Counted from the first letter of the stretch, positions 82-10,209 are shown. The stretch is DNA of 10,257 nucleotides from a virus (IMGVR_UViG_2547132272_000016:1-10257), one strand, 5' to 3'. Translations and numbers: made by a program. Notes: generated from the letters alone by a model not told the origin.

Positions 82-1041
82 TTACTCCTTGTCCATTGCG
101 TACAGCCCATTAACCAGAGCAAACTGTGGCACCCCGTCCGCGATGAAAGTTGCATTAACTCCGCAGGCTTCGCGGATAGCGGGTGCCACAATCTCCGCTC
201 CTCCACCGACAACCATCACCCGCCCGTAACCCGAAAAACCCGCCAGCGCGCGGATCACGCGTTGTTTCAGTGTTTCTTCCTTTTCACGAATAACTGCCAT
301 CAGGCTGGCGTAATGCGCGTCATTGTGGATGTGCTGGCGCAGCCAGGCTTCATCATGGCGATGTTCGATAATGGTATTGGCGATGTGGTGACTGGTGCGC
401 ATACCGTTAGTGGCCATCACCGACAGTACGGCATCGGCCATCAGAGAAACGCCTACGTGTGGATCGCAAAACACCTGGCTGATACCTGCCAGTTGCCCCT
501 GAACCTTTGCCACATCCAGCGTGGTTCCGCCCAAATCCACAATCAGCAGGGATTCAAACGGACTCATGTCAGCCAGTGCCTTAAAGCCAGCCGGAATGGA
601 TTCAGGCATAACCCGCACGTTACGGATAGTGAATGCCTCGCCGTTCTGGTACTCCACCGGGCGCATAACGTTCGCTTTTTTGCGGCTGATGTTGGCCATG
701 TCCGGCTGTGCGTTTGTATCGAAATACTCGCTCAGTGGCAGGGTGACAACCACATCCACTTCCTGTGGCGTGATGCCTGATTTGACCAGCGCGTGATGAA
801 TGGCAATGACATTCACATCGCTGTACTGGTATTGCGTGTCGGTCGTCTGGATAAAGCGATCGCTGACCGGATCAAAACCATAGCGCACGCCATCAAGCAT
901 GTAGTTCGCGGGCTGCGTGCCACCGAACGGCGCAGACCATTCCGACTTGAAGCTGTTCGGGCTGATGGCGTTGCGGCGTTCGCCGTTCTCAGTCCATGCC
1001 AGCTTGATGTTGGTGGAGCCGTCGTCGATACAAATTTTCAT
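82..1041 (-). CDS. parM: Actin-like plasmid segregation ATPase ParM/StbA
   Basis: 319-aa ORF with ATG start and AAGGA Shine-Dalgarno 8 nt upstream. N-terminus MKICIDDGSTNIKLAW plus the blocks ISPNSFKSEW, YQYSDVNVIAIHHAL, VMPESIPAGF and DLGGTTLD match recalled R1 ParM/StbA motifs (actin-fold phosphate-1 DDGSTN and DxGGGT-type motifs). Confidence 0.88.
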   Translation of the reverse strand: MKICIDDGSTNIKLAWTENGERRNAISPNSFKSEWSAPFGGTQPANYMLDGVRYGFDPVSDRFIQTTDTQYQYSDVNVIAIHHALVKSGITPQEVDVVVTLPLSEYFDTNAQPDMANISRKKANVMRPVEYQNGEAFTIRNVRVMPESIPAGFKALADMSPFESLLIVDLGGTTLDVAKVQGQLAGISQVFCDPHVGVSLMADAVLSVMATNGMRTSHHIANTIIEHRHDEAWLRQHIHNDAHYASLMAVIREKEETLKQRVIRALAGFSGYGRVMVVGGGAEIVAPAIREACGVNATFIADGVPQFALVNGLYAMDKE

Positions 1042-1072: not shown

Positions 1073-1184
1073 TTTACGGGATTTTTAAATCCCGCTTTCG
1101 CCTGTTTTGTGCGCACTTCATGTTTTATGGCGCGTTTTTTGCTCATTTACGGGATTTGTGAATCCCGTTTCTGTCTGTTTTTTG
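1073..1184. repeat. Two ~39-bp direct repeats 73 bp apart, each with an 18-bp palindrome (CGGGATTT-nn-AAATCCCG); candidate parC-like centromere/operator or replication-origin element
   Basis: Repeat 1 (1073-1111, palindrome 1077-1094) lies in the 76-bp gap between the A stop and the parM start, overlapping the likely parM promoter. Repeat 2 (1146-1184, palindrome 1150-1167) lies inside the last codons of gene A. About 80% identity between the copies. Confidence 0.45.
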
Positions 1185-3925
1185 TTTCCACTGGTCAGGC
1201 CACCCCGCAGCAGGTCTGCTTTGCGGTGGGCGCGTTCAGTGGTTTCACTGATTCTTTGTGCATGCTCTGCGTCACGGATGGCGCGCAGCATGTCAGAAAG
1301 CACGGTAACGGGTGTTTTCATGGTGTTCTGGTCTTGCTGAAGTGTGGATGCCAGGCGTGCGGCGGCTTCGGGGTCTGATGCCCCCAGCTGTTCCAGATAG
1401 CTGGCGACCGGGTTATGACGGATCTCCGTGCTGCTTACGCCGTGATTGCGGCTCAGGCGCTGCCAGAGCTGCGTGATTCGGCTGTCCGGGCGGGTATCCG
1501 GTTTGCGTACAATTTCAAATCCCTGCGGTGCAATGATGCTGCCGTCAACGTACAGGCTGCCGCCCCGTAACAGGTGCTGCATCTGCTGTTCACCGATATG
1601 CAGGCCGAGAGATTCGGCAGACTCCCGCCATTCTTTAGCGAGTAATTCGTGGTTATCAGGCAAAGGCCGCTGCTGTTTGCGGCTCTGTGTCCAGCTCTGC
1701 ATTTCATCACTGCTGTTTTTTGCCTGTTTGTCACGCAGCGAACGCATCAGCGCCCGGCGTTCGTGCCGTTTCAGTGAGCGCATCCATTCGTTCACTTCAA
1801 CGCCGTCAGGGAGCTGCGGCCACGGTGCTGGCCGTTCTTCCGGCTGTTCTGTCCCGTTGTTGTCCGTTTCCTGTACACGGGGACAGTTATTGCCACGAGT
1901 CCAAGGGGCGGCAGGGCCGCCCTGAAGGTCAAAACCATTTTCGCGGGCGCTGTCTTCCGCTTCCGGTTTGCGTCTTACCAGCTTCCAGTTATCCGGATGC
2001 GTGCATACGCGGGAAGACTCCCCAATGAGCGGCGACCAGATCCCGTAAATCTGTACGCTCTGTTCACCGTAATCGTTCAGCTCATCTGCGAGGTCGTAGG
2101 CGGTGCGAATCAGGTAGTCCTTGCGTGGAACAAGCACGCCACCCTGTTTTTCAATGTAGGTGGCAAAACACCCGGCATCGGCGGCAGCGAGTACCGCATC
2201 CATTGCATCATCTTTCAGCCGTTGCGGGCCTTCCGGATTGCGTGCCATCTGGCTGGCAAGGCGGCGCAGTTCACGCCACACCTGACGGGAGGGGATACCA
2301 AAGAACTGGAACTGACGGACCCGGTGAAGGCGCGCCCAGCCGATGGCGCGCTCCACGCTCTCGGCCATTGATTTTCCGGTTTCGTGGTCAACGCGTGGCT
2401 TGCCCGTTTTCGGGTCGATGCCATCCACGGCGCGGCTGTCCAGGTTCTTTCCGATGTAGGTAGCGATGTAGCTGGTTGGTGTGCCTTTTGAGCCGTCGAC
2501 ATACTCCGCCTTAAAGCGCGGAGTAATATCATTGCCCAGCTCGTGGCGGTCCTCCTGAATGGCAATATCGCAGACGTGGGACACGATGGTTTCAATCTCG
2601 TCCGGATGTGCAAAGACCATCATATGCCAGTGCACGGTGCCGTCATGGTGAGGCTCCACCGTGCGGATGCCATACCAGCGCAGGCCGTCGCGGTTCAGTT
2701 TTTTGCGGACCGCCGCAAAAAACGTGTTAACCAGGTAATCGCTGGAGTCGCGCATGGTGGCCCCGTTCCATTTGGGGTTCGGATGACCGTTCTCCGTTGT
2801 TGCGTGGTATTTTGACGGGCAGGTGACGGTCAGAAACACCGCTCTGTCGCCACGGGCTTCGGCCAGAAGTTCCAGTCCCTTCATGGTGGCCATCATTTCT
2901 GCCTTACGGTGAACCGGGTTACTTACTCCCGCGTAATACACCGTCTCGAGATCAATCGTGAACCCGTCTTCATTTTCCAGCATGAAACTTTTCAGGAAAT
3001 CGCGTGTTTTCTCGCGCTGTGCGCGAAACTCGCTTAACGCATCCTGGCTCAGATAGGGTGATGTTTTTCTGGAAACCAGACAGGCGGCGCGGAGTTGTTC
3101 TTCTCTCCACTCGCAACGTAACAGCCACAGTTTGCGTTTCCACCAGTCCGCACAGGTCAGGCGGAGGATTGCGCCCGGTAACAGTTCCGTATTCGGATCG
3201 CTCTTGTTCAGGGCTTCGTAATGTGGCGGCATGATGTGCAGGCATAATGCGATACGGGCTAGCATCCGGTAAGCCTTCAACATTACATCCATGGTCAGCT
3301 CGCCATCTCTGGCACCAAAGCCATCGCAGAGTGTTTCAAAGGTGCTGCTGAACATCGCCGCCGTCATGGTGGCCAGCGTCTGTATCTGGTGCTTGTTGAG
3401 CTGCGGCAGGTAAAGCAAATCGTCCAGGCGTTCTCGCCCGGCAAGGGAGCGATAACCCGGTGTCAGCCAGCGTCCGTCAGTGCGATCCAGACGTTCGAAT
3501 ATTTTGCGCAGGGTTCCGCGTGCATAGCGTTCCGCCTGCCAGCTCTTTTTGCCTTTCTGGCGATCGGCTTCCTGTTTTTTGCGCAGGAAGGAGAGGTGGC
3601 GAATAAGCGGATCGCGCAGATAGGATGGCAGCAGGCGCAGCGAGGCCATGGCTTCATCCACCGCGCCGCGTGCCTGTTTTCTGGCTTCTCTGGCCAGTGT
3701 GATGGTTTTGTCCTGTTTTTCCTGTGCGTCCAGGCTTTTATTAATCAGGTTGCCCAGCGGTGTGGCGGAGAACGCCGCATCAGCCATTTCCTGGCGGCGT
3801 TCGTTCTCTGCCCGGTAGGCATCCAGCCAGGAGGAAAGTGCGGATTCAGGTGCGGGGATCTCCGTTCCTTCACGTCCTACTGCGTGGCGCGGTTGTTGCC
3901 AGTCCCTGATGTACTCTGTCGTCAT
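1118..3925 (-). CDS. A: P2 gpA-family rolling-circle replication initiator (HUH endonuclease)
   Basis: 935-aa ORF with an HUH motif (VHWHMMVF) followed by a paired-tyrosine YxxxY motif (TSYIATYIGK), the arrangement recalled for P2 gpA and phiX174 gpA. Sits as the last large gene of the early operon, as in P2. An R/E/Q-rich C-terminal ~300 aa makes it longer than P2 gpA (761 aa). Confidence 0.85.
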   Translation of the reverse strand: MTTEYIRDWQQPRHAVGREGTEIPAPESALSSWLDAYRAENERRQEMADAAFSATPLGNLINKSLDAQEKQDKTITLAREARKQARGAVDEAMASLRLLPSYLRDPLIRHLSFLRKKQEADRQKGKKSWQAERYARGTLRKIFERLDRTDGRWLTPGYRSLAGRERLDDLLYLPQLNKHQIQTLATMTAAMFSSTFETLCDGFGARDGELTMDVMLKAYRMLARIALCLHIMPPHYEALNKSDPNTELLPGAILRLTCADWWKRKLWLLRCEWREEQLRAACLVSRKTSPYLSQDALSEFRAQREKTRDFLKSFMLENEDGFTIDLETVYYAGVSNPVHRKAEMMATMKGLELLAEARGDRAVFLTVTCPSKYHATTENGHPNPKWNGATMRDSSDYLVNTFFAAVRKKLNRDGLRWYGIRTVEPHHDGTVHWHMMVFAHPDEIETIVSHVCDIAIQEDRHELGNDITPRFKAEYVDGSKGTPTSYIATYIGKNLDSRAVDGIDPKTGKPRVDHETGKSMAESVERAIGWARLHRVRQFQFFGIPSRQVWRELRRLASQMARNPEGPQRLKDDAMDAVLAAADAGCFATYIEKQGGVLVPRKDYLIRTAYDLADELNDYGEQSVQIYGIWSPLIGESSRVCTHPDNWKLVRRKPEAEDSARENGFDLQGGPAAPWTRGNNCPRVQETDNNGTEQPEERPAPWPQLPDGVEVNEWMRSLKRHERRALMRSLRDKQAKNSSDEMQSWTQSRKQQRPLPDNHELLAKEWRESAESLGLHIGEQQMQHLLRGGSLYVDGSIIAPQGFEIVRKPDTRPDSRITQLWQRLSRNHGVSSTEIRHNPVASYLEQLGASDPEAAARLASTLQQDQNTMKTPVTVLSDMLRAIRDAEHAQRISETTERAHRKADLLRGGLTSGNKKQTETGFTNPVNEQKTRHKT

Positions 3926-3931
3926 ACTGAT

Positions 3932-4297
3932 TTACTTCGTCATGCCATTCAGAGTGTCACGGCAAACGGCAGCCAGCCGCTGAATCTCCAGCACAGTGTC
4001 TTCTGTGTCGGCATGGTGGTGTGTGATGCGGATACTGTCGGCAATCACATCGACGATCGCAGAGGATGGGCGCTGGTAAATGCCAATAACGGACGGGGTG
4101 CCGCCTTCAATGCGGTAAAGCCTGTAATTTCCCTCGTGGCTGTCAATCATGTAGCGACCATCAATAACAATCTTTCCGTCAGCGAGCTGCGGTACAGGCA
4201 GGGATTTCAGGTACATGTCATAACGGTCACGCACGCGAACGGCAAGATCACGCTCTGTGTTGAGCAGGTATTCAAGAAAGTCGTTGGCGAGAATCAT
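3932..4297 (-). CDS. Hypothetical early-operon protein (121 aa)
   Basis: C-terminal 121 codons of the 326-aa track ORF. Internal ATG at 4297 has an AAGAGGA Shine-Dalgarno 8 nt upstream and protein-like composition from there on; the stop lies 6 nt before the gene A start. The upstream 205 codons are S/T/P-rich and look non-coding. Confidence 0.55.
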   Translation of the reverse strand: MILANDFLEYLLNTERDLAVRVRDRYDMYLKSLPVPQLADGKIVIDGRYMIDSHEGNYRLYRIEGGTPSVIGIYQRPSSAIVDVIADSIRITHHHADTEDTVLEIQRLAAVCRDTLNGMTK

Positions 4298-4370
4298 TGC
4301 GGCAATCCTCTTTACTACAGATGTGCGAAGGCCTCCCGCCGCAAGGTGCAGGAAAGGCCCGGAACAGGAA

Positions 4371-4601
4371 TTAATGGAGTTTGTTTTGCTGCTGGATGAG
4401 ATCCTGAAGAGACAGGAGGTCTTCCGCCAGATAGCTGAATACAGCGGCGCAGTAGTCGGCTGAAATAGTGCTGTTGAGTCTGTGCAATGTGTTGGATTGC
4501 ATGATAAAGGCGATGTGTGCAGCGCGGGTGAGTCTGCGGTCGATTTCAGTCTGGATGTGACGACGCTCTGCGATAGCGCGGTGCTGTTTGCGGTTTGCCA
4601 T
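4371..4601 (-). CDS. Hypothetical small basic protein (76 aa)
   Basis: ATG with AAGAGG Shine-Dalgarno 8 nt upstream; charged N-terminus (MANRKQHRAIAERRH..). No family recognised. Confidence 0.55.
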   Translation of the reverse strand: MANRKQHRAIAERRHIQTEIDRRLTRAAHIAFIMQSNTLHRLNSTISADYCAAVFSYLAEDLLSLQDLIQQQNKLH

Positions 4602-4692
4602 GGTGTGGCCTCTTTGGTTGTAAGTTTTGAAAACTCACCATCCAGAGGTGGAAAACTCGGGGTGGTGAGACGTACAGGGTTTCCACAACCGG

Positions 4693-4716
4693 CAACCAAA
4701 GAACCCGGCCCGACCG
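4693..4716 (-). other. Stable hairpin with a UUCG tetraloop on the transcribed (-) strand, in a 322-bp non-coding gap
   Basis: Minus-strand RNA GGGGCCGAC-UUCG-GUCGGGCCGGG followed by UUCUUUGGUUG. Could be an attenuator, processing site or terminator. Confidence 0.3.
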
Positions 4717-4778
4717 AAGTCGGCCCCATACGCCCCACCATAATTCGTGTGCGAAAAAGACGTGGCGATACGGTACGC

Positions 4779-4801
4779 ACAAAAAAACCGCTGGCGCGGT
4801 T
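4779..4801 (-). terminator. Candidate rho-independent terminator or attenuator on the - strand
   Basis: Minus strand reads ACCGC-GCCA-GCGGT followed by TTTTTTTGTG, about 125 nt downstream of the 99-aa gene stop. The stem is short (4-5 bp), so this is weak. Confidence 0.3.
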
Positions 4802-4923
4802 GTGCGCTTTGGTTGTCAGCGGGGTGGAAATCCCGGCACCCGTTTTATGAGGTGCAGCGGAAATGTAACCTGACTGATTGCGGCATGGCAAGCGGTTTTT
4901 TTGTGTGTGCATGTTCTGGTTTC

Positions 4924-5486: not shown

Positions 5487-5686
5487 CTGCGTGGCTCCTG
5501 TACTTGTCGGATAAGATTCACCCGCGCCACGTTGGTGGCGCAGAAATAAGTGCCGTCAGTGAGGTAGATGTGGTGCGCATCCTTTTCCGAACGATGTTTG
5601 TCGATAGTGGTAATCAGGCGTTCGTCGACCTCGTATTCACGTCTTCTGGAGGTGAAACGAACGACGGTAAATTGCTTAATTGCCAT
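5483..5686 (-). CDS. Hypothetical small protein (67 aa)
   Basis: ATG with GGGAG-type Shine-Dalgarno; overlaps the upstream gene's stop by 11 nt. Confidence 0.55.
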   Translation of the reverse strand: MAIKQFTVVRFTSRRREYEVDERLITTIDKHRSEKDAHHIYLTDGTYFCATNVARVNLIRQVQEPRR

Positions 5687-6002
5687 TACACTCCCTTGCT
5701 TTATGTCCGTGTTTGAGCTTTTCTATTTCTTCTTTTTGTTCTTTTAATATTCTTATGGCTGTAAAAACATTAAAGCCCATAAAATGTGCTCTGTTCGCTA
5801 GTGGAATGCTGGTACCTTTGTTAGCTATATCATCTTCAATATCAGTGAAATACTGACGTATTTCTTCTAGCGCGGCGCAGAGTTTTGTGAGATCTCGCCC
5901 TACATCATAATACGCAGTCCTTAGTATTTCTTGATTTGTCCTGAGCATGCTAACCTCATGTTTATATATGCGGATACCTCCGCGAGTGCGGATTGTTTTC
6001 AT
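5676..6002 (-). CDS. Hypothetical protein in an AT-rich segment (108 aa)
   Basis: ORF in a visibly lower-GC stretch (about 5700-6060) than the flanking genes; weak Shine-Dalgarno. Looks like an acquired insert within the operon. Confidence 0.45.
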   Translation of the reverse strand: MKTIRTRGGIRIYKHEVSMLRTNQEILRTAYYDVGRDLTKLCAALEEIRQYFTDIEDDIANKGTSIPLANRAHFMGFNVFTAIRILKEQKEEIEKLKHGHKARECNGN

Positions 6003-6037
6003 GTTTTCTTATTTAATCTGGTGTTTTGTTTGTGCAG

Positions 6038-6151
6038 TTATTCGTCAGAGAAAAAACGCTCAATCTTTTTCACTGAATGAATAATTCGCATAATGCCAAT
6101 GGTGCAGACCACCGAAATAATCAGAATAAGCCATGACATAAATATACTCAT
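6038..6151 (-). CDS. 37-aa hydrophobic single-pass membrane peptide, not in the supplied ORF track
   Basis: Minus-strand ATG at 6151 with GGGGAA Shine-Dalgarno 7 nt upstream, overlapping the upstream gene's stop in an ATGA. Translation: MSIFMSWLILIISVVCTIGIMRIIHSVKKIERFFSDE, a ~20-residue hydrophobic core then a basic tail. The track's 6060-6263 ORF is in a different frame. Confidence 0.45.
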   Translation of the reverse strand: MSIFMSWLILIISVVCTIGIMRIIHSVKKIERFFSDE

Positions 6152-6390
6152 GCGATATTCCCCAGTTTATATGGTTCAATGCGAACCCCGTATTCTGTGT
6201 CCCGGACAAGTTCGGAAAGCTCGTTAATCGCATCCAAATCGTCAGCGTAAAAGGCCACGTCATAAAGGCTTCTGATTGCCCTTGCTAATGAATCATAGGC
6301 CGCGTGTTCTGCCTGGACTCCTGATGTGTTTAAGCGAAAATGAAAACGCTCAAGTGCTTTATTGACGAGAGTCTTGTATTCCTGGTCCAT
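6148..6390 (-). CDS. Hypothetical acidic small protein (80 aa)
   Basis: ATG with AAGGG Shine-Dalgarno; tightly spaced with neighbouring genes. Confidence 0.55.
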   Translation of the reverse strand: MDQEYKTLVNKALERFHFRLNTSGVQAEHAAYDSLARAIRSLYDVAFYADDLDAINELSELVRDTEYGVRIEPYKLGNIA

Positions 6391-6401
6391 TGCAACGCCC
6401 T

Positions 6402-6680
6402 TTAATCTGCCTTATGGGTTTCAGCTTCTGAATCCATACAAATAATTTCGATATAGGGTTCATCGCCATTAACCTGACGTGCCTTTTCAGCTTCGCTAAT
6501 GATTTCTCGTACGGTCTGATACGGAAGCTCCACAGTCAGGCGCGTACCGTTCAGATAAACGTAAGTAGCTGCGTTTTTTTCGGATGGAACAACTCCGTCA
6601 ATGGCTGATGCGCGTAATAACAGTTCACCGCGAAAATCAATAAAACGGATAAATACACTTTGTGCATGGTCTTTGGTCAT
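6402..6680 (-). CDS. Hypothetical protein (92 aa)
   Basis: ATG with AGGTGA Shine-Dalgarno; 10-nt gap to the upstream gene. Confidence 0.55.
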   Translation of the reverse strand: MTKDHAQSVFIRFIDFRGELLLRASAIDGVVPSEKNAATYVYLNGTRLTVELPYQTVREIISEAEKARQVNGDEPYIEIICMDSEAETHKAD

Positions 6681-6690
6681 AAATCACCTG

Positions 6691-7041
6691 TTATAAATCA
6701 GCTTGTTTAATGAAATTCTGTCCGCGCAGCAGACGATCAACCGTGCGCAGAGCTTCGTACAACGTGAAATCCTGTCCAAACTGATTGTCGCCGTTGCTCA
6801 GAGCAAAAATGCGGTTTCCGGTAAATGGGTTGCGTTGGCATCTGTGAACCACGATTCCAGCTTTCTCAATTAGCCAGGTGTGTTCACCAATTTGTTTTAC
6901 GGGATGGCCATCAGGTGTGGCGTGTGTTTCGCTCAGGCTGTAGCGAGAGCTGCTGCGTGATGCACTGGTGGCGAAACGGTTAGCGTGGCGTTCCGCCCCG
7001 TTGCGGAAGCGTTGCTGTGAAGAATTTCGTTGTTGCTTCAT
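6691..7041 (-). CDS. Hypothetical protein (116 aa; start uncertain, alternative ATG at 7089)
   Basis: ATG at 7041 is preceded by AGGA; the ORF's first ATG at 7089 has no Shine-Dalgarno. Basic S/R-rich N-terminus then a globular-looking C-terminus. Confidence 0.5.
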   Translation of the reverse strand: MKQQRNSSQQRFRNGAERHANRFATSASRSSSRYSLSETHATPDGHPVKQIGEHTWLIEKAGIVVHRCQRNPFTGNRIFALSNGDNQFGQDFTLYEALRTVDRLLRGQNFIKQADL

Positions 7042-7085
7042 ACAAAAATATCCTGCTGCTGTTGCGAATTTGTGCCGGGTTTTAG

Positions 7086-7117
7086 CCATGCCCGGCGCAT
7101 GGTTTTGTGGTATTTTT
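7086..7117 (+). terminator. Candidate + strand hairpin with U-tract (terminator or attenuator) upstream of the + strand accessory gene
   Basis: CCATGC-CCGGC-GCATGG stem-loop (7086-7102) followed by TTTTGTGGTATTTTT. An overlapping alternative stem GCCGGG-N11-CCCGGC (7074-7096) could compete with it. Confidence 0.25.
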
Positions 7118-7182
7118 CCACCGCCCGCAGTCTTGAAGGGGCTGTAAAGGGCGCGTGTTTAACCAACCACAAAGGAGTTGTT

Positions 7183-7650
7183 ATGGAATTAGATGCTTTT
7201 GTGTGTCTGCGAATTTTTGAAAAACACTGCGAGCGAGTTGCTGAATCCTATCGTGATGTGCTGGATAAAGAAACAGCCAACTCAGCATTTGTTGCTACTC
7301 GAGCATTAATTCTCCTTAAATTGGATTTGCTACTTGTCGAGTATCGAAGAAATATTGATTCCAAGTGTGTAGTCCTCTTCGGAAAAAATGTGCTTTATCA
7401 TTATCTTTTCACCCAAAAGGGTGTTTCATTGTCTGATGCCAAAAATATGTGTCTCCATGACATACTTATTGTTCTCTGGAATGATATTAATGCATATGTA
7501 ATACCAGAGCATGTATCCGAGCGTATCCAGATTCTTTATAAGCACGAGCTCTCATCTCCAATGCCTGATTTAAGTTATGAAGATGAAAGTCTGTTGCACT
7601 TTAAGGATTCTGCTTGGGATTTTTATCCTGCCGATACACGACTGAATTAA
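7183..7650 (+). CDS. Accessory protein of unknown function (155 aa), opposite strand to the early operon, low GC
   Basis: ATG at 7183 with AAGGAG Shine-Dalgarno 6 nt upstream (the track ORF extends upstream only via a TTG). AT-rich codon usage unlike the flanking phage genes. Its 3' end overlaps the convergent 202-aa gene by about 47 nt. Confidence 0.6.
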   Translation: MELDAFVCLRIFEKHCERVAESYRDVLDKETANSAFVATRALILLKLDLLLVEYRRNIDSKCVVLFGKNVLYHYLFTQKGVSLSDAKNMCLHDILIVLWNDINAYVIPEHVSERIQILYKHELSSPMPDLSYEDESLLHFKDSAWDFYPADTRLN

Positions 7651-8209
7651 GAAACTCATTGTTTCTATCTATTTCAGCCTGGTAGGCCTCTAACTCATGC
7701 CGTAATTGTTGTTGTCTTAGTGGTAACCTGTTGCGGCATTTCAATTCTGCTACAACGGTTTCCAAAAAATTTATCAGTTCTTCATCAGTGTATGAGCCAG
7801 CATAAATGTACGGTTTAGTGTTAGCGCATGTACAGTCTGCTGTTTCTTTAATGAGCATTGATTCGTCATCCATAATCTGTCGATAAAGTTCAAATGCTTC
7901 TTCGGCAGGAAACCTGAGCATGACGCCGCATACTGGTTCTAAAACCAATCCGAACGTTCCCTTTGCGTTATCCCGACAAAAATGGCCGTATTCATCGTCG
8001 GGATGCAGGGTGGCATCTTTCAAATCTTCGCCATTCTGAAGCTTTGATTTAAATGCCATCAGGTCAGCGAACGTTCTGTGTAATTCGTGGTAGTCAATGC
8101 TGATTTCAACCTGTGGTTTGCCCGGAAAAACCAGCAAAAGCTTCTGGTGTGGTTTTTCGTTTTTCAGGGTTTCCAGTCGTTCCAGTAGCGCTTTATTTTT
8201 GTGATTCAT
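7601..8209 (-). CDS. Hypothetical protein (202 aa), second gene of the leftward early transcript, low GC
   Basis: ATG with AAGAGG Shine-Dalgarno about 10 nt upstream. No family recognised. Its 3' end overlaps the + strand 155-aa gene. Confidence 0.6.
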   Translation of the reverse strand: MNHKNKALLERLETLKNEKPHQKLLLVFPGKPQVEISIDYHELHRTFADLMAFKSKLQNGEDLKDATLHPDDEYGHFCRDNAKGTFGLVLEPVCGVMLRFPAEEAFELYRQIMDDESMLIKETADCTCANTKPYIYAGSYTDEELINFLETVVAELKCRNRLPLRQQQLRHELEAYQAEIDRNNEFLNSVVYRQDKNPKQNP

Positions 8210-8313
8210 TCTACTGTTACCTCTTTTAACTCATTCAGGCAGTGTGATATAGCCCACTAACTGCCCGTGTTTGAAATAACGGCGACGAAAATAATGTGTT
8301 AACAATAAAGCAA

Positions 8314-8739
8314 TCATGCGGCCCTCGCTTTTTTAGTTCTGCTTCGTTTGCTATGTGTCGGCTTAAATAAAAACAGGCGGTTTTCCCAGTCATGCCATTC
8401 CTGCGGAGCGTTTTCGATCAAGCGATCACATGCTTCATCCCACGCTTTTCTGTTGATGTAGAGTTCAGCGTTTCCTCCTGGCCTAAGAGGGTCTGTCATA
8501 TACACGGCTGGCAATTTCCCTGCTTTAGCCATGCTCACAATGGCGCTAACTGTTTTGCCGATATACAGCGCAAATCCTTCTTTTGACAGGAGATGCGAGG
8601 GATTTTCTGAAAGTCGAATTTCTTCACGTTCACGTGCTTTGCGTTCTGTTTTTTGATGCTCCCCTTCTGGCATTTCTGACAGGCGATCGCATCGTGTTCC
8701 GCAAAGTGACTCAGGCGCGTTTTGAGTGCTTTCTTGCAT
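8314..8739 (-). CDS. cox: Cox/Apl-like HTH regulator (excisionase/early-operon repressor type), unusually long
   Basis: First gene leftward of the switch region, the position of P2 cox and 186 apl. Central HTH-like segment GFALYIGKTVSAIVSMAKAGKLPAVYMTDP resembles what I recall of P2 Cox. Start placed at ATG 8739 (GGAGG Shine-Dalgarno 7 nt upstream) rather than the track's GTG at 8778. At 141 aa versus ~90 for P2 Cox it has a charged N-terminal extension; it could alternatively be a CII-type regulator. Confidence 0.55.
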   Translation of the reverse strand: MQESTQNAPESLCGTRCDRLSEMPEGEHQKTERKAREREEIRLSENPSHLLSKEGFALYIGKTVSAIVSMAKAGKLPAVYMTDPLRPGGNAELYINRKAWDEACDRLIENAPQEWHDWENRLFLFKPTHSKRSRTKKARAA

Positions 8740-8812
8740 CTGATATCCTCCGCCATTGGTGCTCTTTCTAATTGGCACTAGTTGGAACCACTTAGAACAT
8801 TTGTTTGCTGTT

Positions 8813-8840
8813 CATATGTGGTGTTAATCTACACATATGT
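8813..8840. promoter_or_regulatory. Candidate repressor operator: CATATGTG-N11-CACATATG (also two direct CATATGT copies 20 bp apart)
   Basis: The two half-sites flank the proposed -10 of the leftward early promoter, analogous to P2 C operators flanking the Pe -10 and 186 CI operators at pR. Confidence 0.4.
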
Positions 8841-8853
8841 AGGAGTTTGTCAA
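8826..8853 (-). promoter_or_regulatory. Candidate early lytic promoter (Pe-like), transcribing leftward toward cox
   Basis: Perfect -35 TTGACA on the - strand (8853-8848), 16-nt spacer, -10 TAGATT (8831-8826). The -35 abuts the C start codon, so the early transcript would be antisense to the C 5' end. Confidence 0.4.
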
Positions 8854-9147
8854 ATGGACATTCCTCAAAAAATTCGCGTCATGCGCAAATCTGAAGATCT
8901 CACTCAGCGGGAATTCGCTGATATGATTGGAATTTCTTATTCTGCTCTGACCAGTTATGAGTATGGTCGTAACCTTCCTGGCCTCGAGATCACTATCAAG
9001 CTTTTCAAGCACCCGAGATTTTCTAAATACCGCGACTGGTTTCTGTTTGATGAAGTTGAACCCAAGGCCGGGCAGGTTGTACCGGCTCTCGCACACATTG
9101 GGCAAGGCGAAGCGGAATCATCCCGCTCCGGCAAGAAAACTGGTTAA
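8854..9147 (+). CDS. C: P2 C-type immunity repressor
   Basis: Start at internal ATG 8854 with AGGAG Shine-Dalgarno 8 nt upstream. The 97-aa product matches recalled P2 C features: KIRVMRKSEDLTQREFADMIGISYSALTSYEYGR and the C-terminal PALAHIGQ...SGKKTG. Lies immediately upstream of int on the same strand, as in P2. Confidence 0.85.
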   Translation: MDIPQKIRVMRKSEDLTQREFADMIGISYSALTSYEYGRNLPGLEITIKLFKHPRFSKYRDWFLFDEVEPKAGQVVPALAHIGQGEAESSRSGKKTG

Positions 9148-9213
9148 CGGTTCACCAGGCATTTATTTCCCAGAGCTGTGATCAAGATGATGTTTTCATT
9201 GGAGGGCTTCCTT

Positions 9214-10209
9214 ATGTCGATTAAGAAGCTCGCTAATGGCAAATTTTGTGTGGACGTGCGGCCTGCTGGATCAGAAGGAAAGAGATTCAGGCGGCGATTT
9301 GATACTCGTGGTGAGGCTGTTTTGTATGAGCGTCATGTATTGCAGCATTACCACGACAAAGACTGGGTTGATAAGCCAACAGAACGGCGCTCGCTGAGGG
9401 AGTTGCTGGATTGTTGGTGGCTATACCATGGGAAAAACCATCCTTACGGTGCGATGGAGCGAGTGCGTATTTCTGCGGTCATTAGTGATCTTGAAAGTAT
9501 TAATGTTACACGCAGTGACCAACTTACTCGTAAGAACATAATTAATTATCGGTTATTGTTGCTTAACCGCGGAATAAAACAATCCACGGTTAATCGTTAT
9601 TGCGCAATGATGAGTGGTTTCTTCACAAAACTAATTGACGCAGAGGAATATTCTGGGGTTAATCCGTTTCATGATGTGAAAAAACTTAATATCAAACAGC
9701 CTGAAATGGCTTATTTGTATCATGAAGATATTCCACGATTACTGGAGTTGTTATCTGGTGATGAATTAAAAGCCGTCTTGTTGTGTCTGGCAACAGGTGG
9801 AAGATGGAGTGAAGTTGCAAATATCAAGGGGGAGCATGTTATTAGCGGCAAAGTCATTTTTATGGAAACAAAAAATGGGAAGCGTCGCGTTATACCTATA
9901 TCGTCAGAACTGGAGTGCATGATTAAGACTAAGGCTACTGGTCGTTTAATTTATCCGAGTTATGCCGCTGTCAGAACGGCTATCAGAAAAGTGAGGCCCG
10001 ATCTTCCTGAAGGGCAGTCGATACATGTTTTACGGCATACCTTTGCCACTCACTTCATGATTAATGGCGGGAATATCATCACTTTGCAGAGAATACTTGG
10101 GCATAGCACTATTCAGCAGACGATGACTTATGCCCATTTTGCACCGGATTATCTGCAGGATGCTGTGCGCTTTAATCCTGTGGCTGAGTTGTCCAGATAT
10201 TGCCCATAA
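9214..10209 (+). CDS. int: P2-type tyrosine integrase
   Basis: Start at ATG 9214 (MSIKKLANGKF..., compare P2 Int MAIKKL...) with GGAGGG Shine-Dalgarno 7 nt upstream; the track's GTG at 9178 is probably an over-extension. C-terminal catalytic region HVLRHTFATHFMINGGNIITLQRILGHSTIQQTMTYAHFAP carries the conserved R, H-x-x-R and catalytic Y of tyrosine recombinases. Confidence 0.92.
   Translation: MSIKKLANGKFCVDVRPAGSEGKRFRRRFDTRGEAVLYERHVLQHYHDKDWVDKPTERRSLRELLDCWWLYHGKNHPYGAMERVRISAVISDLESINVTRSDQLTRKNIINYRLLLLNRGIKQSTVNRYCAMMSGFFTKLIDAEEYSGVNPFHDVKKLNIKQPEMAYLYHEDIPRLLELLSGDELKAVLLCLATGGRWSEVANIKGEHVISGKVIFMETKNGKRRVIPISSELECMIKTKATGRLIYPSYAAVRTAIRKVRPDLPEGQSIHVLRHTFATHFMINGGNIITLQRILGHSTIQQTMTYAHFAPDYLQDAVRFNPVAELSRYCP

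Follow-up and report, generated by a model that had tools for sequence, protein, structure and literature searches.

Why is the replication initiator of a P2-like prophage so much longer than that of phage P2, and does its additional C-terminal part represent a new domain? The question is raised by gene A of the viral sequence IMGVR_UViG_2547132272_000016:1-10257, a stretch of 10,257 nucleotides referred to below as the window. Gene A occupies positions 1118–3925 of the minus strand (935 codons by a scan of the window for open reading frames, ORFs), and a reading made from the sequence alone (the sequence-only reading) suggested that the C-terminal ~300 residues of its product may be an added regulatory or partner-interaction domain. 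In P2-like phages, gpA flanks the main hypervariable hotspot, which extends up to the portal gene gpQ and for which Rousset et al. (2022, PMC9122126) counted 1650 gene arrangements among 18,150 loci of E. coli. Intense recombination and very rapid swapping were described for the gpA–gpQ hotspot (PMC13586616). We consider it probable that gene A encodes a P88-like initiator with the origin of replication (ori) inside its own gene, and that the length of the tail encoded downstream of this ori results from modular exchange.

According to this interpretation, the length difference from P2 would arise by the exchange of modules at the left edge of the gpA–gpQ hotspot, and the effective left border of the variable region would be the conserved ori core inside gene A, not the stop codon. 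Tail and cargo would be swapped together, and the reading frame would stop wherever the incoming DNA offers a stop codon. From ori onward, the product comprises a predicted disordered linker, a basic helix of the P2/186 type, a domain of ~100 aa, a clade-specific helix, and an unconstrained read-through into the control region of a parMR partition cassette. The observed range of gpA lengths, from 694 to 946 aa, would follow from module exchange together with a stop supplied by the incoming DNA.

Gene A encodes a P88-like initiator

The gene A product matched the Pfam family Phage_GPA (PF05840) over the whole profile (positions 1–321 of 321; E=1.3e-127, 425.8 bits against a cut-off of 31.4). 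It also aligned over aa 3–933 with the PHROG family phrog_91, annotated 'nicking at origin of replication' (852 columns, E=2e-274), and over aa 247–933 with phrog_6857. Both histidines of the HUH motif and both tyrosines of the active-site pair (four of four residues) are invariant in the alignment with P2 and 186 gpA. With the full-length AlphaFold model, the top Foldseek matches were weak but coherent, namely the origin-binding domain of AAV2 Rep68 and the Helitron transposase (E ~0.02). A sequence search of Protein Data Bank (PDB) chains with the whole gpA returned nothing relevant (best E=0.69), and the NCBIfam search of gpA gave no match. At the DNA level, the gene is 95.6% identical to gp16, the 'replication endonuclease' of phage P88 (NC_026014). 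Thus, the Pfam and PHROG matches, the identity with P88 and the invariant catalytic residues bear out the sequence-only reading of a gpA-type initiator with a clear HUH and YxxxY core, and on sequence comparison the product is assigned as the gpA-type rolling-circle initiator of a P88-like (Xuanwuvirus, Peduoviridae) prophage. Of 5426 complete E. coli genomes, 1320 contained gene A at a coverage of at least 80%, in every case under the name 'replication endonuclease', and clusters of homologues of 940–946 aa hold 707, 3025 and 16881 members. About one quarter of complete E. coli genomes carry this P88-like prophage initiator gene; it is ordinary, already annotated and extremely common.

A predicted origin of replication within gene A

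The 23-nt motif CTNGGANTNNTGNCAATAACTGT matched once in the window (0 matches in 200 shuffles), and it occurred once in each of the 15 loci fetched (15/15), every time in gene A. In P2 and 186, the same motif covers the annotated nick or ori positions; the annotated nick site of P2 (29892) lies within the codons for AAPRSPVNNC. By this comparison, the nick in the window is predicted at ~1902/1901 on the minus strand, and the HUH/Y-x3-Y core should nick the in-gene origin of its own phage, as in P2 and 186. Since the predicted ori core lies inside the gene (Table 1), what the sequence-only reading took for a 'C-terminal extension' corresponds to everything that the gene encodes after ori, termed the tail below (aa 682–935).

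The residues encoded by the ori core, PWTRGNNC (aa 674–681), are conserved, yet they fall within a stretch modelled as disordered by AlphaFold (aa 655–702, pLDDT 27–33 over aa 661–700), which would mean that the conservation is imposed by the DNA. The wider protein motif AAP..NNC (window 1883–1921, aa 669–681) is conserved from P2 through 186 to P88 and also belongs to the predicted disordered linker; this residue conservation is probably a by-product of the constraint on ori at the DNA level rather than a matter of the protein. A scan of synonymous changes for cis-acting elements downstream of ori gave a trough at aa 651–700, and similar troughs elsewhere in the gene.

Probable modular exchange from the origin onward

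Mosaicism was assessed from the segment-wise identity of 60 homologues and from blastn comparisons between loci, and three modules emerged. The N-terminal one (aa 1–101) exists in two or more types that are 24–29% identical, while the remainder of the same proteins is 86–100% identical (P0019, P0022, P0051, P0080), and many E. coli genomes share an end-point of homology at gene nt 304. The conserved core module comprises aa 102–672, and the third module is everything from ori onward. The clearest junction was that of locus L009, which has a 186-like early region (CI, CII, Fil). Its gpA core is ~50% identical to that of the window in amino acids and 67–73% in nucleotides, whereas from aa 673 to the end of the tail and on through parM the two loci share 97.7% of their nucleotides; the left junction lies at most ~10 nt from the predicted nick. 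In locus L012 (gpA of 830 aa) and in the genome matches H95, H98 and H99, homology is lost at gene nt 2047–2050, where the ori core ends on the right. H100 matches in the ori core alone, and for Klebsiella phages, among the matches listed, the alignment ends at nt 2047–2063. Further junctions were located at aa ~741 (L011), at aa ~898 in L014 and L015 (gpA of 910 and 916 aa, respectively), after which unrelated cargo follows, and at aa 918 (L010).

These junctions would also be expected if ori and tail formed a co-adapted specificity unit, in which the tail domain recognises its own ori flank or loads a helicase there and which is moved by the HUH strand transfer of gpA in mixed infections. 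We regard this as rather unlikely. The identity pattern of L009, in which ori core, tail and parMR came together up to ~10 nt from the predicted nick, would suit such a unit, as would the finding that in several independent lineages homology stops at the right-hand border of the ori core; on the other hand, the junctions at aa ~741, ~898 and ~918 do not coincide with ori, and the conserved island of 30 bp would draw RecA- or phage-mediated homologous recombination anyway. An analogy may be drawn with the Rep proteins of geminiviruses, rolling-circle-replicating (RCR) plasmids and the pT181 family. The nick sites of geminivirus and RCR-plasmid Rep are recombination hotspots, and the Rep of the pT181 family has a C-terminal determinant of origin specificity and an ori inside rep. 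No DNA-binding fold was recognised in the tail by Pfam or Foldseek, and 186 gpA is wholly without the domain, both of which argue against a specificity unit. It is likewise doubtful that the nick site of the in-gene ori is itself an active recombination junction, at which gpA would join the nicked origins of co-replicating P2-like phages, so that everything from ori to the end of the cargo (defence systems, parMR), tail included, would move in a single block. The data are compatible with such a junction, and equally with plain homologous recombination in the 30-bp island.

The cargo that follows gpA differs between loci. In L014 (5779–8306) it consists of three reverse-strand genes without a Pfam match, and in L015 (5932–8751) of an AAA ATPase and an S8 peptidase (AAA+ plus S8 protease); these non-parMR cargoes are probably defence systems of the gpA–gpQ hotspot. 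The short forms of gpA (830–879 aa) are followed by a small ORF overlapping the gpA stop (L010 5616–6044, L011 5637–6092, L012 5490–5921), which encodes 142–151 aa in L010 and L011 and 143 aa in L012. Two of the three are Cys-rich at the N-terminus (CRQCG…CCRC, zinc-ribbon-like). The three gave no Pfam match and resemble neither P2 orf91 nor the tail of the long gpA. An origin of the long tail by fusion with the small ORF after a shorter gpA (L010, L011, L012, P2 orf91) was considered and rejected for lack of similarity (E>1); the ORFs of L010, L011 and L012 merely end in the same parMR-flank sequence.

Length, composition and anatomy of the tail

The gpA proteins of P2 and 186 have 761 and 694 aa, respectively, so the gene A product is 174 aa longer than that of P2. 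The sequence-only reading had estimated ~170 aa and spoken of a C-terminal extension. The estimate was right, but only part of the excess is C-terminal: the net excess over P2 is +46 in aa 1–178 (including a 55-aa insert at aa 21–75), –10 in the catalytic core (aa 179–498), +19 in aa 499–681, and +119 in the tail. The description of the C-terminus as R/E/Q-rich and charged holds for glutamine, the only residue enriched ~2-fold in the tail (8.3% vs. 3.7%, p=0.006), and not for charge, as the content of R+K+D+E is 28.7% in the tail and 28.3% in the rest (p=0.9; C-terminal 254–300 residues). Low complexity has to be abandoned. No 12-residue window of the tail reached the SEG trigger of 2.2 bits, which was reached only at aa 572–574, outside the tail, and the Shannon entropy was 4.03 bits for the tail and 4.15 for the whole protein. 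The helical appearance was confirmed in part by AlphaFold at moderate confidence, with helices at aa 711–747, 759–786, 815–865 and 872–908, alongside a sheet at aa 791–809 and disorder at aa 655–702 and 909–935.

The borders within the tail were drawn from alignments and from two AlphaFold predictions with a mean pLDDT of 60.5 (tail alone) and 63.3 (full length), built on multiple sequence alignments (MSAs) of 12 and 25 sequences. The best-modelled part is aa 752–811 (pLDDT 67–87), and the C-terminal end (aa 909–935) is modelled as disordered, with pLDDT below 50 from aa 907. In the domain-level alignment, the basic helix after ori was found in both P2 and 186; the first half of the C-terminal domain aligned to the P2 gpA C-terminus, and 186 gpA had no counterpart of the domain. 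The clade-specific helix is absent from other tail types. A tie between this helix and parMR was rejected, since the helix is also present in the gpA forms of 910 and 916 aa, which are followed by unrelated cargo in place of parMR.

The tail was searched exhaustively by HMMER against 1.84 billion representative proteins, and only 26 proteins were found at E<=0.001. Beyond fragments of the same gene, only aa ~768–858 were detected in more distant proteins, and the eleven sequences read (two weaker multi-stretch matches, P0135 of 2998 aa and P0145 of 673 aa, were not inspected) are those of gpA or of fragments of it, each with this region at its very C-terminal end. In P0131, for example, a protein of 841 aa with 34% identity, the tail domain is at residues 744–832. 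A profile search with the tail gave mainly contig-end fragments of gene A and little added diversity; every source-named match at E<1e-4 was a replication endonuclease or replication protein, apart from three unnamed, Phage_Cox-bearing matches that were not inspected. Among the matches read or named at the source, the tail was thus neither absent from ordinary gpA proteins nor found in other protein contexts, as an independently acquired domain would be. Judging from these comparisons, the ~100-aa C-terminal domain is nothing unusual and belongs to a broad subset of the gpA proteins, and only aa ~866–898, one predicted helix, are both clade-specific and constrained.

It is therefore unlikely that the C-terminal ~300 residues are a lineage-specific addition with a regulatory or partner-interaction role. 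The clade-specific helix (aa ~872–898) does lie within a segment under purifying selection (aa 859–917), and the predicted disordered linker of ~50 aa joins the tail to the core as might be expected for an independent module. Most of the region nevertheless aligns to ordinary gpA proteins, including P2 and the distant 841-aa forms, and only about 30–60 aa are clade-specific. The region is neither unusually charged nor of low complexity. In addition, the helix is retained whichever cargo follows (parMR, the AAA+ plus S8 protease or others) and is hence independent of ParMR. The alignments with phrog_91 and phrog_6857, the clusters of 940–946 aa, and a Hafnia homologue of 913 aa (62% identity), whose alignment reaches aa 917, show that for most of its length the C-terminus corresponds to that of ordinary gpA homologues of similar length, essentially the outcome named beforehand as contrary to an addition. 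Of the proposed added domain, the constrained clade-specific helix is what is left, and a partner-binding role for aa ~866–898 is possible. By sequence, the extra length is mostly a C-terminal region common to many relatives and not a newly added regulatory domain.

Selection on the tail

The dN/dS ratios were calculated by the Nei–Gojobori method against six relatives with the same tail type. For aa 673–767 they were 0.00–0.20 in close pairs and 0.37 against Hafnia, and for aa 768–858 they were 0.00–0.11 and 0.32, respectively. For aa 859–917, values of 0.10–0.15 were obtained in four close pairs, and higher ones in the comparisons with the Salmonella locus L013 (0.39) and Hafnia (0.42). In the last segment (aa 918–935, a small sample of codons) the ratios in close pairs were 1.0–3.2. 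Residues 673–917 are under purifying selection, and the low ratios indicate that the protein is real and selected up to aa ~917; the final 18 codons are without protein-level constraint in this small sample.

These values make it highly improbable that the 3' third of the ORF is not protein at all, being an artefact of annotation or read-through or a separate overlapping gene. Such a reading could appeal to the last 18 codons, whose dN/dS is at least 1 and whose sequence is that of the parMR cassette flank, and to the database records in which the gene is split (L005 and L006). The dN/dS is nevertheless well below 1 up to aa 917 in the annotated frame in each comparison with aligned codons left in this part, namely those with five loci (~4–25% nucleotide divergence) and with the L009 tail; the frame is open in all intact relatives of 910–946 aa, and the split records represent one and the same frame, broken by frameshifts in the assemblies. 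As far as aa ~917, a misannotation is thereby excluded. In RefSeq, gene A of L005 (phage 520873) and L006 (phage 503458) is divided into 3–4 coding sequences (CDS) named 'DNA replication domain protein', 'nicking at origin of replication' and 'replication endonuclease'; the gene is otherwise collinear, and the splits apparently go back to frameshifts or to errors of assembly.

Selection also bears on the idea that the tail is a spacer. With ori ~255 codons before the stop, the folded nuclease would still be tethered via the ribosome and RNA polymerase to its own template at the moment at which ori becomes accessible, which would give the cis-preference that P2 gpA is known to have. The ori does precede a long coding stretch in P2, 186 and here, and the length and sequence of the tail vary greatly (~75 aa in 186, ~135 in P2 and 254 here). 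Furthermore, P2 gpA attaches covalently to the DNA template that expresses it in cell-free systems, which is the basis of covalent antibody display (summarised in PMC11719329). A dN/dS of 0.0–0.2 and a conserved folded domain would, on the contrary, not be expected of a mere spacer, and 186 manages with a tail of ~75 aa, so we give this explanation little credence. A role of the conserved tail domain after or beside nicking is favoured, either in the binding of ori-flank DNA or in the recruitment of a host helicase, because the domain appears flexibly tethered, is under selection, and was moved with ori in at least one recombination event. In the literature that was searched, no paper on the function of the gpA C-terminus turned up.

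Palindromes and the parMR cassette

The sequence-only reading correctly placed a palindromic repeat at the extreme 3' end of the gene, where a 20-nt palindrome was confirmed within the last 22 codons. The same palindrome, ACGGGATTTnnAAATCCCGT, is held by both of two 39-nt direct repeats whose copies are 73 bp apart, an arrangement matched in none of 200 shuffles. The downstream copy is at –54 from the ATG of parM (at –53 in L008, the Hafnia locus) in every one of the nine sequences examined, and the upstream copy is at –127 in eight of the nine, none being found there in L008. These positions hold for any upstream gene, whether a long gpA ending 50 or 21 nt past the first palindrome or the unrelated 142-aa ORF of L010. 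The last 37 codons of gene A (aa 899–935) form the junction to the cassette that follows. Between the window and the parMR cassette of L010, homology starts 5 nt before the first palindrome, at codon 918 of gene A, and the end of the L010 ORF (…HNEQKRDS) resembles that of gpA in the window (…NEQKTRHKT). It would mean that the end of gene A is a read-through into the upstream control region of the cassette. From their positions, the palindromes are ascribed to parMR and not to gpA, and they are likely candidates for a ParR operator or a parC-like site of a phage-borne parMR cassette. Their use as terminators of gene A was rejected as unlikely, since no U-run follows them on the coding strand; the terminator scan flagged only a weak match on the opposite strand. 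In P88 and its relatives, the ParM annotation is followed by a ParR-type partition protein.

Points against the interpretation

Several points weigh against modular exchange at the in-gene ori. The junctions at ori could have arisen by plain homologous recombination in the sole strongly conserved 30 bp, in which case its part as a boundary may be passive. Synonymous change drops to 0.03 at ori, compared with a typical 0.1–0.25, but this trough is not unique along the gene, and the survey of breakpoints comprised ~15 loci and a sample of 60 among 1445 genome matches. As regards the tail, a Pfam search with it alone at E<=10 gave only sub-threshold noise (Death 0.038, CCDC24 0.57), Foldseek gave no fold match (best E 0.13 against BFVD), and no PDB sequence match was found for it. 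Moreover, the moderate confidence of the models makes the domain borders approximate, and the dN/dS of the last segment is based on only 18 codons.

Relation to known systems

The closest relatives are P88 gp16 (YP_009113059, 940 aa; Xuanwuvirus) and its E. coli prophage copies, with 95.6% nucleotide and 97% amino acid identity over the full length. P88 has the same tail and ori motif, the adjoining downstream parM–parR, and palindromes at –127 and –54. The proteins differ by 5 aa in length and in their last residues (…KTRHKT here and …KTRSDI in P88), within the unconstrained junction segment. P2 gpA (NP_046795, 761 aa) shares the Phage_GPA domain, HUH, Y-x3-Y, the in-gene ori at the AAP...NNC codons, the basic helix after ori, the first half of the C-terminal domain and the position at the left edge of the gpA–gpQ hotspot. 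However, it is only 34% identical in amino acids and has 119 fewer residues after ori; the 55-aa insert near the N-terminus is missing, as are the terminal helix and the second half of the C-terminal domain. P2 gene A is followed by orf91, tin and old, whereas parMR follows here. The gpA of 186 (NP_052289, 694 aa) has the catalytic domain, the ori motif and the basic helix after ori as well, but it is 35% identical, its post-ori tail has only ~75 aa, and the C-terminal domain is missing altogether.

More distantly, the chemistry of HUH and paired tyrosines is that of phiX174 gpA, AAV Rep68 and Helitron, in line with the weak structural match to AAV2 Rep and Helitron (E ~0.02). Unlike these, the gpA studied here is much larger and shows no detectable sequence relation to solved structures, and nothing in them corresponds to its N- and C-terminal regions. 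For the palindromes only, there is a likeness to the type II parMRC system of plasmid R1, with a ParM (StbA) gene, a Plasmid_stab_B (ParR-type) gene and repeats just upstream of parM. The parC of R1 consists of ten 11-bp iterons, in contrast to the two 20-nt palindromes 73 bp apart in an integrating phage, which are candidate sites by sequence.

Genomic neighbourhood

The window represents a P2-like early region with int (9178–10209), a C-type helix-turn-helix (HTH) repressor (8782–9147), Cox (8314–8778), small early genes, A, and ParM (82–1041), the last being the first cargo gene of the gpA–gpQ variable region. This synteny is the same as in P88 and its relatives, and E. coli prophages with an identical set of genes matched 84% of the 10.2-kb window at 92–93.5% identity. 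The cargo of P88 is followed by the portal gene. Among the small early genes there is a gene of the Derepression family (4371–4601; PF25738, E=1e-4). The 326-aa ORF at 3932–4912(–) is over-extended, as P88 annotates only its last 121 codons (3932–4297), and its upstream part overlaps the Derepression-family gene in another frame. Between cox and A, a block of low GC content (~5500–8300; 38–44%, compared with 55–59% in gene A) contains ORFs without a Pfam match, e.g., 7601–8209(–) of 202 aa and the convergent 7030–7650(+) of 206 aa. This block may be accessory or defence cargo in the minor int–gpA hotspot described for P2-like phages.

Table 1. Features in and around gene A (window coordinates)
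Feature	Position	Strand	Basis
parM, first cargo gene of the gpA–gpQ variable region	82..1041	-	Pfam StbA_N E=6e-82, ParM_N E=1e-68
Downstream copy of the 39-nt direct repeat, with palindrome at 1076–1095, in the A/parM spacer	1073..1111
Gene A, gpA-type HUH rolling-circle replication initiator, 935 aa + stop	1118..3925	-	ORF, PF05840, phrog_91, nucleotide identity to P88 gp16
Junction codons, aa 899–935	1121..1231	-	blastn end-points, dN/dS, pLDDT
Upstream copy of the 39-nt direct repeat, with palindrome ACGGGATTTGTGAATCCCGT at 1149–1168, in the last 22 codons of A	1146..1184
Clade-specific helix, aa 872–898 (LSDMLRAIRDAEHAQRISETTERA); model extends to 908	1232..1312	-	P88-like and Hafnia forms only
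Conserved gpA C-terminal domain, aa 759–865: two helices, three-stranded sheet 791–809, more helices (predicted)	1331..1651	-
Basic helix, aa 711–747 (EWMRSLKRHERRALMRSLRDKQ...; ...KRHERRALMRSLR...), recognisable in P2 and 186	1685..1795	-	Alignments, both models
Acidic Pro-rich linker, aa 682–710, predicted disordered (disorder from aa 655)	1796..1882	-	pLDDT; poorly conserved across tail types
Predicted ori core CTTGGACTCGTGGCAATAACTGT, encoding P-W-T-R-G-N-N-C (aa 674–681)	1883..1905	-	One match in the window, motif shared with P2/186
Phage_GPA catalytic domain, aa 179–498	2432..3391	-	Pfam match to the full profile
Active-site tyrosine pair Y486-x3-Y490	2456..2470	-	Invariant with P2 and 186 gpA
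HUH motif H432-W-H434	2624..2632	-	Invariant with P2 and 186 gpA
Exchangeable N-terminal module, aa 1–101, with a 55-aa insert relative to P2	3623..3925	-	Identity split, recurrent end-point

Implications

As a discovery, the gene carries little weight, being a near-identical copy of an annotated and very common prophage gene in whose subfamily the 'extension' is normal. For annotators and for the mapping of defence systems in the gpA–gpQ hotspot, it would mean that the variable region effectively starts at the ori inside gene A, and that swaps of cargo rewrite the gpA C-terminus, even its last codons. If the nick site did prove to be an active junction, it would provide a mechanistic left boundary for the hotspot and explain the variable C-terminus of the initiator. 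The ~100-aa C-terminal domain of gpA appears to be a reasonable small target for studies of replication in the P2 family.

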